Shown: piece by piece, positions 21,662 to 23,784 of the stretch
How positions within the stretch are numbered: the first letter of the stretch is position 1
Layout of the letters: every line of letters starts with the position of its first letter
Source of the DNA: Pseudogymnoascus verrucosus
Lineage: Eukaryota
DNA: 64,000 bases
Assembly (NCBI GenBank): GCA_001662655.1
Contig: KV460214.1
Direction: 5' to 3' (one strand)
Notes under the pieces: generated by a model
Databases searched by the model: none
What the model was told of the DNA's origin: nothing
The model's input: the letters and a program-made list of their open reading frames with translations, nothing else
Made by a program: the position numbers and the translations under genes

Positions 21662-23784
21662 TTACTCAATCCGTGCGTAGTGTTCCAACAATTCGACAAT
21701 CTTCATCTCGCCAAGATGCTTCGCTAGTTCCTTTGGCGTCCAAAATACGCCTGTATTGAAAGTCGGGCGAGCACCATGGGTAAGTAGCTGCTCCACTGCA
21801 TGACTGTTTCTCTTCTCCACTGCACGCAATAGGGGTGTCTAATTATGTTACTTAAGGACTGACCTGCATTCAAATAGGTAACTCACTCGCTGTAGACAGC
21901 CAATAAATCAGCCTATGAATTAAAACACGCCGACATTAGATTTCATTGTTCTGGTTCACTTACTAGCTATCAAGCCACAAAGGACTGCATCAGCCTTCTC
22001 TATACGGGCTAGTGTAGTTGAAGGCCGCGTCGGGTTAACTTACTAGCTATAATACCAAAATGACTAGCATTAGCCATCTATTACACAGAGAGTTGCCTAA
22101 ATCAGGTCAGGTTCACTTACTCTCTATAATACCAAAGAGACGAGAATCAGCTATCTATTCAAAAGAGAGAAACTCAGATCAGGTCACGTTCACTTACTTC
22201 CTATAACACCAAATAAACCATCATCAGTCATCCATTTTATAAAGAGGAACACGGATTAGGACAGGTTCACTTACTTGCTACAATACCAAAGACAATCGCA
22301 TCAGCCACCCATTTAATAGAGAGTAACGCAGATCAGGTCAAGTTGGCTTACTTCCTATAATACCAACATCAGCTATCCATTCGATAGAGAGGAACTTAGA
22401 TCAGGTCAAGTTCACTAACTGGCTATAATATCAAAGAAATGAGTATTAGCCATCTATTCGATAGAGAGAAACTAAGATTAGGTCACATTAACTTACTTGC
22501 TATAATACCAAAGAGACAAGCATCAGCCACTGATTCAACAGAGCGTAGCCCAAACCAGGGCAGGTTAACTTACCACCTATAATACCAAAGTAGCAAGCAT
22601 CAGCTATCCATTTAAAGACAGAGTCAGATTAGGTCAGATTCACTTACTCCCTATAATACCAAAGAGACAAGCATTAGCCATCTGTCCGATAGAGAGAAAC
22701 TTAGGTTAGGTTAGGTTCACATACTGCCTATAATACCAAAGAGACAGCATTAGCAGTCTATTCCACAGGGAGAAGTCAGATTAGTTTAGGTTCACTTACA
22801 GACTATAATACCAACGAGACAAGCCTTAGCAACCTACTCGAAAGAAAGGAACTTCGATCAAATTCAGTTCACTTACTACCTATAATACCAAGGAAAAGAG
22901 TATCAGCTATCCATTCGATAGAAAGGAACTCATATCAAGTTAGGTTCACTTACTGCCTATAATACCAAAGAGACAAGCATCAGCTATCTACTCAATAGAG
23001 AGTAGCTCAAATCAGGTCAGGTTCACTTACCAGCTATAATACCAAAGAGACAAAGGTCAGTCATCTATTCAACAAAGAGAAACTCGGATTAGGTCATTCA
23101 CTGACTGCCTATAATACCGAAAACGCAAGCATTAGCCATCCATTTAACATAGTAGCTCAAATCAGGTCAGGTTCACTTACTGCCTATAATACCAACGAGA
23201 CTCGCATTAGCCATCCATTTGACAAAGAGGAAGTCAGGTCAAGTTAGGTTTACTTACGTACTATAATACCAAAGAGAAGAACATTAGCCATCTATTAGAT
23301 CTCAGATTAGGTTAGGTTCACTCACTGCCTATAATATCAAAGAGACAAGCATTAGCCCTTTATTTAATAGCGAGGATTAGGCTAGGTTCACTTACTACCT
23401 ATAATACCAATGACGCTAGCATTAGCCATCTATTCAATAGAAATGAACTTAGATAAGATTAGGTTCACTTACTACCTATAATACCACACAGAGACTTGCA
23501 TCAGCTATTCATTCAATAGAGAGGGACTTTGATCGGGTCAGATTTACTTACTGCCTATAATACCACAAAGAGACTTGCATCAGCTATCTATTCGATAGAG
23601 AGTAGCTCAAATCAGGTCAGGTTCACTTACCACCTATAATACCAGAGAGACGAGCATTAGCCATCCGTCTGACAGAGAGAAACTCAGATTAGGTCAGGTT
23701 CACTTACTGCCTATAATACCAAAGAGACAGCATTAGGTATCTATTCGACAGAGTACCTCAAACCGGGTCGAATCCACTTACTCC
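21662..23784 (-). CDS. 5'-truncated ankyrin-repeat gene built from 26 single-codon (3-nt) exons plus a 177-nt terminal exon
   Basis: Micro-exons give GAVAVVAYAALAVSAGVQPEQERLLR; terminal exon 21838-21662 gives TPLLRAVEKRNSHAVEQLLTHGARPTFNTGVFWTPKELAKHLGEMKIVELLEHYARIE*, which resembles the ankyrin consensus. No start codon found, so it may now be a pseudogene. Confidence 0.7.

Follow-up and report, generated by a model that had tools for sequence, protein, structure and literature searches.

Can a eukaryotic gene spell out part of its protein one codon at a time, with a complete intron between each codon and the next, and what kind of gene would be built in this way? The question is raised by a stretch of 64,000 nucleotides (nt) from the fungus Pseudogymnoascus verrucosus (GenBank assembly GCA_001662655.1, contig KV460214.1), referred to here as the window and used for the numbering of all its coordinates. 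Within it, an array of 26 triplets, each with AG before it and GT after it, leads through a last intron into a short terminal exon of ankyrin type, all on the minus strand. Our analyses support the prediction that these triplets are real one-codon exons, in frame with the ankyrin exon. We consider it likely that the array is the 3′ end of a fungal gene of the NOD-like receptor (NLR) type, with the NACHT-ankyrin or 'nank'-like architecture, surviving as a remnant copy in which a loop of the ankyrin domain is encoded codon by codon.

The chain (21887..23784) consists of 26 three-base exons with 25 introns of 65-77 nt between them. In transcript order the triplets run GGA GCA GTG ... CTA CTA CGA, with first bases at 23784, 23710, 23633, 23554, 23475, 23398, 23328, 23260, 23183, 23108, 23033, 22956, 22879, 22802, 22727, 22650, 22576, 22499, 22422, 22354, 22277, 22200, 22123, 22046, 21966 and 21889. 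An earlier sequence-only reading of the window had listed these triplets, and their order and sequence proved to be exactly as it claimed; its composition figures hold as well (counted by eye, A is the last base in 21 of 26 triplets, seven are GCA and none ends in AG). A GT donor and an AG acceptor are present in 26 of 26 introns, and every exon is exactly 3 nt long. The donor is GTAAGT in 20 of 26 cases, the rest being GTGAGT (twice), GTCAGT, GTATGT, GTTAGT and GTAAGC, and the acceptor before the triplet is TATAG in 22 of 26, with TGTAG, GATAG or TACAG in the others. A branch motif, CTRAT or CTGAC, lies about 20-25 nt upstream of the acceptor.

Tandem Repeats Finder reports a single array on the minus strand (22029..23830; period 77, 23.8 copies, 72% matches, score 1336), with further higher-order periods of 145 and 222 nt that indicate multi-unit duplications. 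The junction pattern of the unit has 24 matches in the window, every one of them within the array, where 100 shuffles give an expectation of 0. Judged from these signals, the 77-nt repeat unit is predicted to be one codon plus one complete short spliceosomal intron, with a GTAAGT donor, a CTRAT branch and a TATAG acceptor. At the 3′ edge of the array, two units (21890..22043, minus strand; the introns after both CTA triplets) are strongly diverged and still retain their splice signals, and the more diverged triplets coincide with the more diverged units at this edge. A reading of the array as a small nucleolar RNA host, or as part of another RNA family, was dropped: a search of 21500-24400 against Rfam (E ≤ 1) returned no small-RNA family, and the CTGA and TGATG motifs of the units suit a branch point better.

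After the last triplet comes an intron of 48 nt outside the repeat family (21839..21886, minus strand; GTGAGT...AATTAG), followed by the terminal exon (21662..21838, minus strand), with 58 codons and a stop and about two ankyrin repeats. Both elements had been proposed before and are confirmed, the ORF (open reading frame) at 21838-21662 being stop-terminated and in frame with the triplet chain. It reads TPLLRAVEKRNSHAVEQLLTHGARP...IVELLEHYARIE up to the stop codon; it contains TPLLRAVEK...HGARP..., and thereafter runs as TPKELAKHLGEMKIVELLEHYARIE to its end. The exon starts at position 4 of the Pfam Ank profile, which is the TPL. By the curated ankyrin thresholds (PF00023/PF12796) this short exon falls below the cut-off, with Ank at E=0.0095 and 16.7 bits against a cut-off of 21.1 bits (profile positions 4-28 matched) and Ank_2 at 16.0 bits against 27.3. 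A phmmer scan covering 1.84 billion representatives, however, matched 2383 proteins at E ≤ 0.001 (best 6.5e-32) with 30-44% identity. Because these proteins each carry many matched stretches, we accept the ankyrin identity that had been claimed for the exon, which Pfam alone would have left below threshold.

The pattern of differences among the units bears on whether splicing has been under selection. For a column analysis we aligned 23 units over 79 columns, leaving out three as too diverged; these three likewise retain GT and AG. Ten of the 79 columns are invariant, and eight of the ten are splice-critical, namely donor positions G1, T2 and G5, the C, T and A of the CTRAT branch, and the A and G of the acceptor. 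The hypergeometric probability of finding all eight splice-critical positions among ten invariant columns is P=1.7e-9. Invariant columns thus coincide with the positions that splicing needs, and selection for splicing has therefore shaped the array. There are 282 differences among the 23 units, comprising 139 transitions, 101 transversions and 42 changes of the TpG/CpA-to-TpA type. Repeat-induced point mutation alone was rejected as the source of the conserved splice sites on the basis of these 42 changes and 101 transversions.

The triplets present a different picture. Their three columns, with 7, 14 and 5 differences, rank among the most variable, and pairwise identity in the array is 0.74 for introns versus 0.45 for triplets. 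The stronger statement, that the triplets are the most variable part of the unit, was not upheld in the window, since interior windows of three columns reach up to 30 differences against the 26 of the triplets together. The window triplets look unconstrained rather than demonstrably hypervariable. The absence of stop codons from the chain had been taken as a sign of selection on the peptide. For this chain alone the argument has no power: its own positional composition gives a stop-free chain a probability of 0.55, random triplets give 0.29, and the simulation proposed for the purpose, in which a GCA array decays to the observed divergence, also gave 0.29. One of the two alternative frames of the chain is likewise free of stops, and the run of Ala, Val and Gly follows from G-starting one-step variants of GCA.

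Evidence of coding appears when the comparison is widened to other arrays. Metagenome contigs were scanned for a pattern of three GTAAGT donors and two YAG-NNN junctions with intron-like spacing, which returned at least 114 loci, with spaced chains in 56 among the matches listed. About half of the listed loci are microsatellites of the (GTAA)n type or have no spaced chain and were set aside, as was a bacterial chance match (L058). We analysed 49 arrays in detail, L058 being one of them, and this and the following counts refer to the matches listed. The long arrays have 38, 37, 34, 32, 31 and 30 units, and all of their junctions are spaced by 3 nt, although the pattern demanded only two. Among 657 metagenome triplets there are 4 stops, where 35.0 are expected from positional composition (P=4e-11); this count excluded the window, L058 and any array with fewer than three distinct triplets. 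The two other frames contain 19 and 85 stops in 592 triplets each. At the level of the family, then, the triplet frame avoids stops and is coding. Two of the 4 stops belong to a single array, L105 (minus strand), which has decayed: 5 of its 20 junctions lack GT or AG (ATAAGT donors, for example), it carries 2 stop triplets and many G/A differences, and it gives a useful picture of an array that is no longer maintained.

The contrast between conserved introns and divergent codons also recurs. Of 32 metagenome arrays that have eight units or more, 31 show greater divergence in triplets than in introns, and the divergence ratio reaches its maximum, 11-fold, in L008, where introns are 0.94 identical and triplets 0.37. 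The exception is L012 (14-3177, plus strand), whose 45 units all carry GGA between introns that are 0.64 identical; it would encode poly-glycine and reverses the usual pattern. Further arrays of a single triplet are L103 (CCT), L037 (GAA) and L111 (TCT).

The metagenome arrays fall into several unrelated intron families. Four of them (L049, L047, L004 and L033) have introns that are 0.57-0.58 identical with a different, CTCAC-like branch motif, and adjoin ORFs with weak P-loop matches (Arf/MMR_HSR1, E about 5e-4). Their chains of 3-nt exons are very long, with 37 plus 12 in L049 (about 2300-6100, plus strand). This group looks like an older or independent lineage of the one-codon design, possibly in another kind of nucleoside triphosphatase gene. 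Usage among the pooled triplets is skewed, with T as third base in 51% and C in 3%; the skew may reflect splice-site context or protein function. Enriched triplets are TGG (18 versus 4.3 expected), AGA (26 versus 8.4) and GAA (51 versus 25.8), and depleted ones are CAG (3 versus 9.6) and AAG (3 versus 8.9).

What kind of gene carries these arrays is indicated by their flanks. Among 48 flanking ORFs run against Pfam, the one upstream of the L027 array contains NPHP3_N/NACHT (5e-42), GPIID_WHD and Ank_2; NACHT lies 19 nt from the array in L048; a 455-residue ankyrin ORF (Ank_2, 1e-86) lies 58 nt from the array in L040; and L076 has GPIID_WHD. Apart from these four and the P-loop group above, Pfam found no domain in the flanking ORFs. 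With flanking ORFs as queries, tblastn detected NACHT, WHD or ankyrin on the strand of the array in all seven loci where such a domain was found. A search with the L040 ankyrin ORF returned generic ankyrin proteins only, the best specific match being an unnamed protein at 62% identity.

The window array is tied to this group both by its introns and by its terminal exon. A hidden Markov model built from its repeat unit matches L087, L038 (E=1.4e-8), L028 and L057. In L038 and L057 the last array intron is followed by an exon that starts TPLSRAA or TPLLRAA, comparable to the TPLLRAV of the window. It had been proposed that homologues joining the ankyrin exon directly to a conventional upstream exon would speak against the chain, and these two loci show the opposite. 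Over all listed loci and both strands, AG followed by TP[LFIM] and 30 open codons occurs at 6 sites, two of which are those directly after the L038 and L057 arrays. A strict scan for TPL exons behind arrays caught only L038 among 73 chain segments, because its segmentation rule splits arrays. From the other side, the ankyrin exon that precedes the array in L040 and L019 ends 1-2 residues into the next repeat, TPL being profile position 4. On these exon boundaries, the arrays appear to replace or extend a short stretch just upstream of the ankyrin-repeat TPL, which we take to be the inter-repeat hairpin, on the binding face of the fold. The suggestion that the window peptide is a transmembrane or signal-like segment is unlikely given this gene context: related loci carry the array within the ankyrin domain of NACHT-type proteins.

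The closest known counterpart is found in truffles. According to passages in several papers (PMC4986451, PMC3689799, PMC10197012, PMC9815663, PMC13449251), the NACHT-ANK or 'nank' genes of Tuber melanosporum have dozens of 3-bp mini-exons, and citing papers credit Iotti et al. (2012, Fungal Biol 116:261) with the finding that these micro-exons are diversified by alternative splicing. One of these sources (PMC13449251, from 2026) refers to the Tuber mechanism as a lineage-specific strategy, and a further paper (PMC5639578) mentions isolated 3-nt exons in a different fungus. Phrase searches of the literature for tandem introns with 3-nt exons brought up no further description of such arrays beyond Tuber nank. 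As those passages portray the Tuber genes, they share with the window array the tens of 3-bp exons, an association with the ankyrin repeats that NLR-type genes encode, and the proposal that frame-neutral skipping of exons diversifies the C-terminal sensor domain. The earlier suggestion that splicing could tune the length of the segment agrees with what the citing papers say of Tuber nank, and the homologous architecture would support it. Unlike the Tuber genes, the window copy has neither a NACHT domain nor a start exon. By the best matches of one neighbouring gene, the hydrolase, the array is probably, and with only moderate safety, placed outside the truffle lineage.

The 5′ edge of the array indicates that this copy has probably lost its front half by truncation. 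Immediately upstream of the first triplet lies a partial unit (23785..23855, minus strand) that keeps the branch motif and acceptor, has CTAAGT instead of GTAAGT and is preceded by no triplet. At about 23856 it is joined straight to the coding sequence of a neighbouring and separate gene, the 3′ part of an alpha/beta-hydrolase (23857..24466, plus strand; exons at about 23860-24090 and 24149-24466). This fragment matches residues 142-309 of 310-residue homologues and retains its intron, and residues 1-141 are absent from the whole window; its best named matches, with 75-86% identity across the aligned region, are from Pleosporales (Lentithecium, Periconia, Paraphaeosphaeria). Pfam detected no NACHT in the scanned ORFs of the window. 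Given this and the truncated 5′ edge, the locus is classed as a remnant and not an intact member, and probably a recent one, since the splice signals of the array and the exons of the hydrolase are intact and suggest that the loss was recent. A single deletion between two head-to-head genes may have taken away the 5′ parts of both: NACHT and ankyrin sequence with the first units of the array from one, and the front of the hydrolase gene from the other. The proposal that selection acted at the protein level on individual 3-nt exons stands in part: the family-level avoidance of stops favors it, and it is not demonstrable on the window copy, because that copy has no start exon, the window has no NACHT and the first unit has no donor.

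Several other explanations of the locus can be considered. The gene might be complete and working in the real genome; its junction with the hydrolase fragment would then have arisen at a long tandem repeat, either by mis-assembly or as a strain-specific artefact. Assemblies classically break at tandem arrays, none of the 26 donors and 26 acceptors has been lost, and both hydrolase exons are undamaged, with 77-82% identity to homologues, as one would expect of an unbroken gene. However, a diverged partial unit with CTAAGT, and not a clean repeat copy, forms the edge that is joined directly to hydrolase coding sequence, and we regard an intact gene as improbable. About equally doubtful is a remnant that would still be expressed from a makeshift first exon, giving a predicted product of about 128 residues in which a variable peptide would be combined with two ankyrin repeats. 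Such an exon would begin at an ATG at 24098, run for 44 codons antisense to the hydrolase exon and use a GTGAGA donor at 23966, to be spliced to the acceptor of the first triplet. Up to 1.8 kb upstream of the array there are 19 candidate donors, and this is the only one that follows an ATG-initiated frame; the partial unit retains a branch motif and acceptor, and the intact splice signals would fit continued use. Yet open frames antisense to coding sequence are common, one in 19 is unremarkable, and two ankyrin repeats with no preceding domain are unlike what is found in related loci.

A more radical alternative is that the array is a neutral minisatellite of intron descent, whose units were never individually spliced and whose triplets are unread, making the peptide an accident. 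The window chain is compatible with this, as it has no significant stop avoidance, a second open frame, and an Ala/Val/Gly run that slight decay of GCA would be expected to yield. Against it, the invariant columns coincide with the splice-critical ones, while the other columns take up 101 transversions and 181 transitions; the decayed array L105 shows lost splice junctions and stops; and related arrays share a frame with ankyrin exons and are poor in stops. This makes the minisatellite quite improbable. Least probable of all, in our estimation, and very much so, is that a mobile or self-propagating intron family has piled up here by chance with no relation to NLR biology. Near-identical introns with full splice signals are a feature of introner-like elements, as described for Dothideomycetes (PMC4457414, PMC8469720). 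However, the unit junction has no copy elsewhere in the 64-kb window, to which the search was confined, and the association with ankyrin and NACHT exons recurs. Moreover, strict head-to-tail copies with a fixed 3-nt spacer and higher-order periods point to local duplication.

Some observations weigh against the favored view, in which the array is the remnant 3′ end of a NACHT-ankyrin gene. Splicing of the micro-exons is predicted, and the window triplets taken alone give no statistical sign of coding, whether by stop tests or by simulated decay. In part, the search pattern itself imposes the 3-nt spacing seen in the metagenome arrays, as it looked for 3-nt spacers only, and NLR domains were found in only 7 of the at least 114 loci listed, most flanks being uninformative. 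In the window itself, tblastn with the NACHT ORFs of L027 and L048 found no NACHT over the 64 kb (E ≤ 1e-3), and there is no clear start exon for this copy. The 58-residue exon has no close orthologue in the phmmer scan, where the best identity is 44%, and a word-indexed search for it among longer proteins found no relative. If the copy is truncated as supposed, the integrity of all its splice signals calls for a recent event or for continued use, and the join between array and hydrolase could be an assembly error at the repeat. Finally, the likeness to Tuber nank is drawn from citing passages and covers the 3-bp exons, the ankyrin association and the exon skipping.

Other systems share single features with the array. 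The ANK, TPR and WD arrays of fungal NLRs with high internal conservation (PMC4986451, PMC9815663) likewise have near-identical tandem units with a few hypervariable positions; they belong to the sensor part of the protein and are reshuffled by unequal crossing-over, as reported from the work of Paoletti, Saupe, Dyrka and colleagues. The window unit is unlike these in being a codon plus an intron, so that conservation falls on non-coding sequence and variation on a whole codon. In the AGGT model of intron gain by tandem genomic duplication, as mentioned in PMC8469720, a duplicated segment with both splice sites adds introns, and the 145- and 222-nt periods fit this mode of gain; the window array, unlike a single such gain, has at least 25 repetitions and leaves one-codon exons. 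In recursive splicing at ratchet points and in stwintrons, too, an acceptor almost abuts a donor, and neighboring introns would have to be removed stepwise, except that here three exonic bases would be retained at each step and read as a codon. The SNORD115/116 host-gene arrays are also tandem units of an intron and a small exon, but the window array matches no small RNA in Rfam and its exons are in a coding frame.

The window around the array is gene-dense and of the Pezizomycotina type, with Pfam matches to Zn2Cys6, SDR, HET, BTB, kinase, subtilase, GH18, LysM and pectate lyase domains. A short HET-domain gene (24643-25466, minus strand; Pfam HET, E=2e-13) lies tail to tail with the hydrolase fragment and has a typical intron at about 24735-24676 (GTTAAG...GCTAAC...TTAG), with its stop ten codons further. 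HET, lipase-like hydrolase and ankyrin are all domains found in fungal NLR-type loci. At 27996-29863 (minus strand), a protein kinase ORF (27996-29384) has a PNP_UDP_1 ORF (29297-29863) immediately upstream of it, also on the minus strand; fungal NLRs commonly carry PNP_UDP at their N-terminus. Subtilase (Peptidase_S8), GH18 chitinase-like and LysM domains occur in a cluster of ORFs at 32718-39739 and 45423-46340, with a G+C content of 0.55-0.58 versus 0.40 around the array. The window also contains a large ankyrin ORF of 875 residues (40737-43364, plus strand) with many repeats (Ank_4 4e-36, Ank_2 1e-33). BLASTP found no meaningful similarity between it and the terminal exon, the likeness being that of the repeat motif only, and no micro-exon chain was detected near it.

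If the window array descends from a NACHT-ankyrin gene, successive removal of the introns is predicted to leave 26 codons in frame with the TPL that opens the penultimate ankyrin repeat. With all exons 3 nt long, any subset could be skipped and the frame kept. Such skipping could serve as a mode of diversification, as citing papers report for the nank genes of Tuber melanosporum. The array may have grown and been reshuffled by tandem duplication or by unequal exchange between its similar introns, with codons diverging faster than introns. The data above establish the anatomy of the array, selection on its splice signals, an ankyrin exon in frame with it, the same architecture in homologous loci, stop avoidance across the family and the absence of the 5′ part; splicing itself, alternative splicing, the function of the loop and the deletion scenario are inferred.

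A broader possibility, for which we see the arguments as evenly balanced, is that arrays of one-codon exons are a widespread and recurrent device of NLR-like genes in fungi and perhaps other eukaryotes, amounting to a shuffling of codons on an intron scaffold. The tandem introns would provide homologous sequence for unequal exchange and homogenization, and the codons, evolving fast and free of stops, would form the hypervariable positions in an enlarged loop between repeats, just before the ankyrin TPL. The unrelated intron families among the metagenome arrays would then reflect independent origins, or a long history, of intron-templated codon shuffling. Two patterns lend themselves to tests with RNA and population data: introns stay alike while codons diverge up to about 11 times more, and arrays stand immediately before an ankyrin TPL. 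Three-base exons are at the limit of what splicing can handle, which makes the array a natural test bed for stepwise intron removal, and gene finders will overlook such chains and cut these genes short. A copy from outside the truffles, together with many environmental arrays, would make micro-exons a general way of diversifying a sensor domain.

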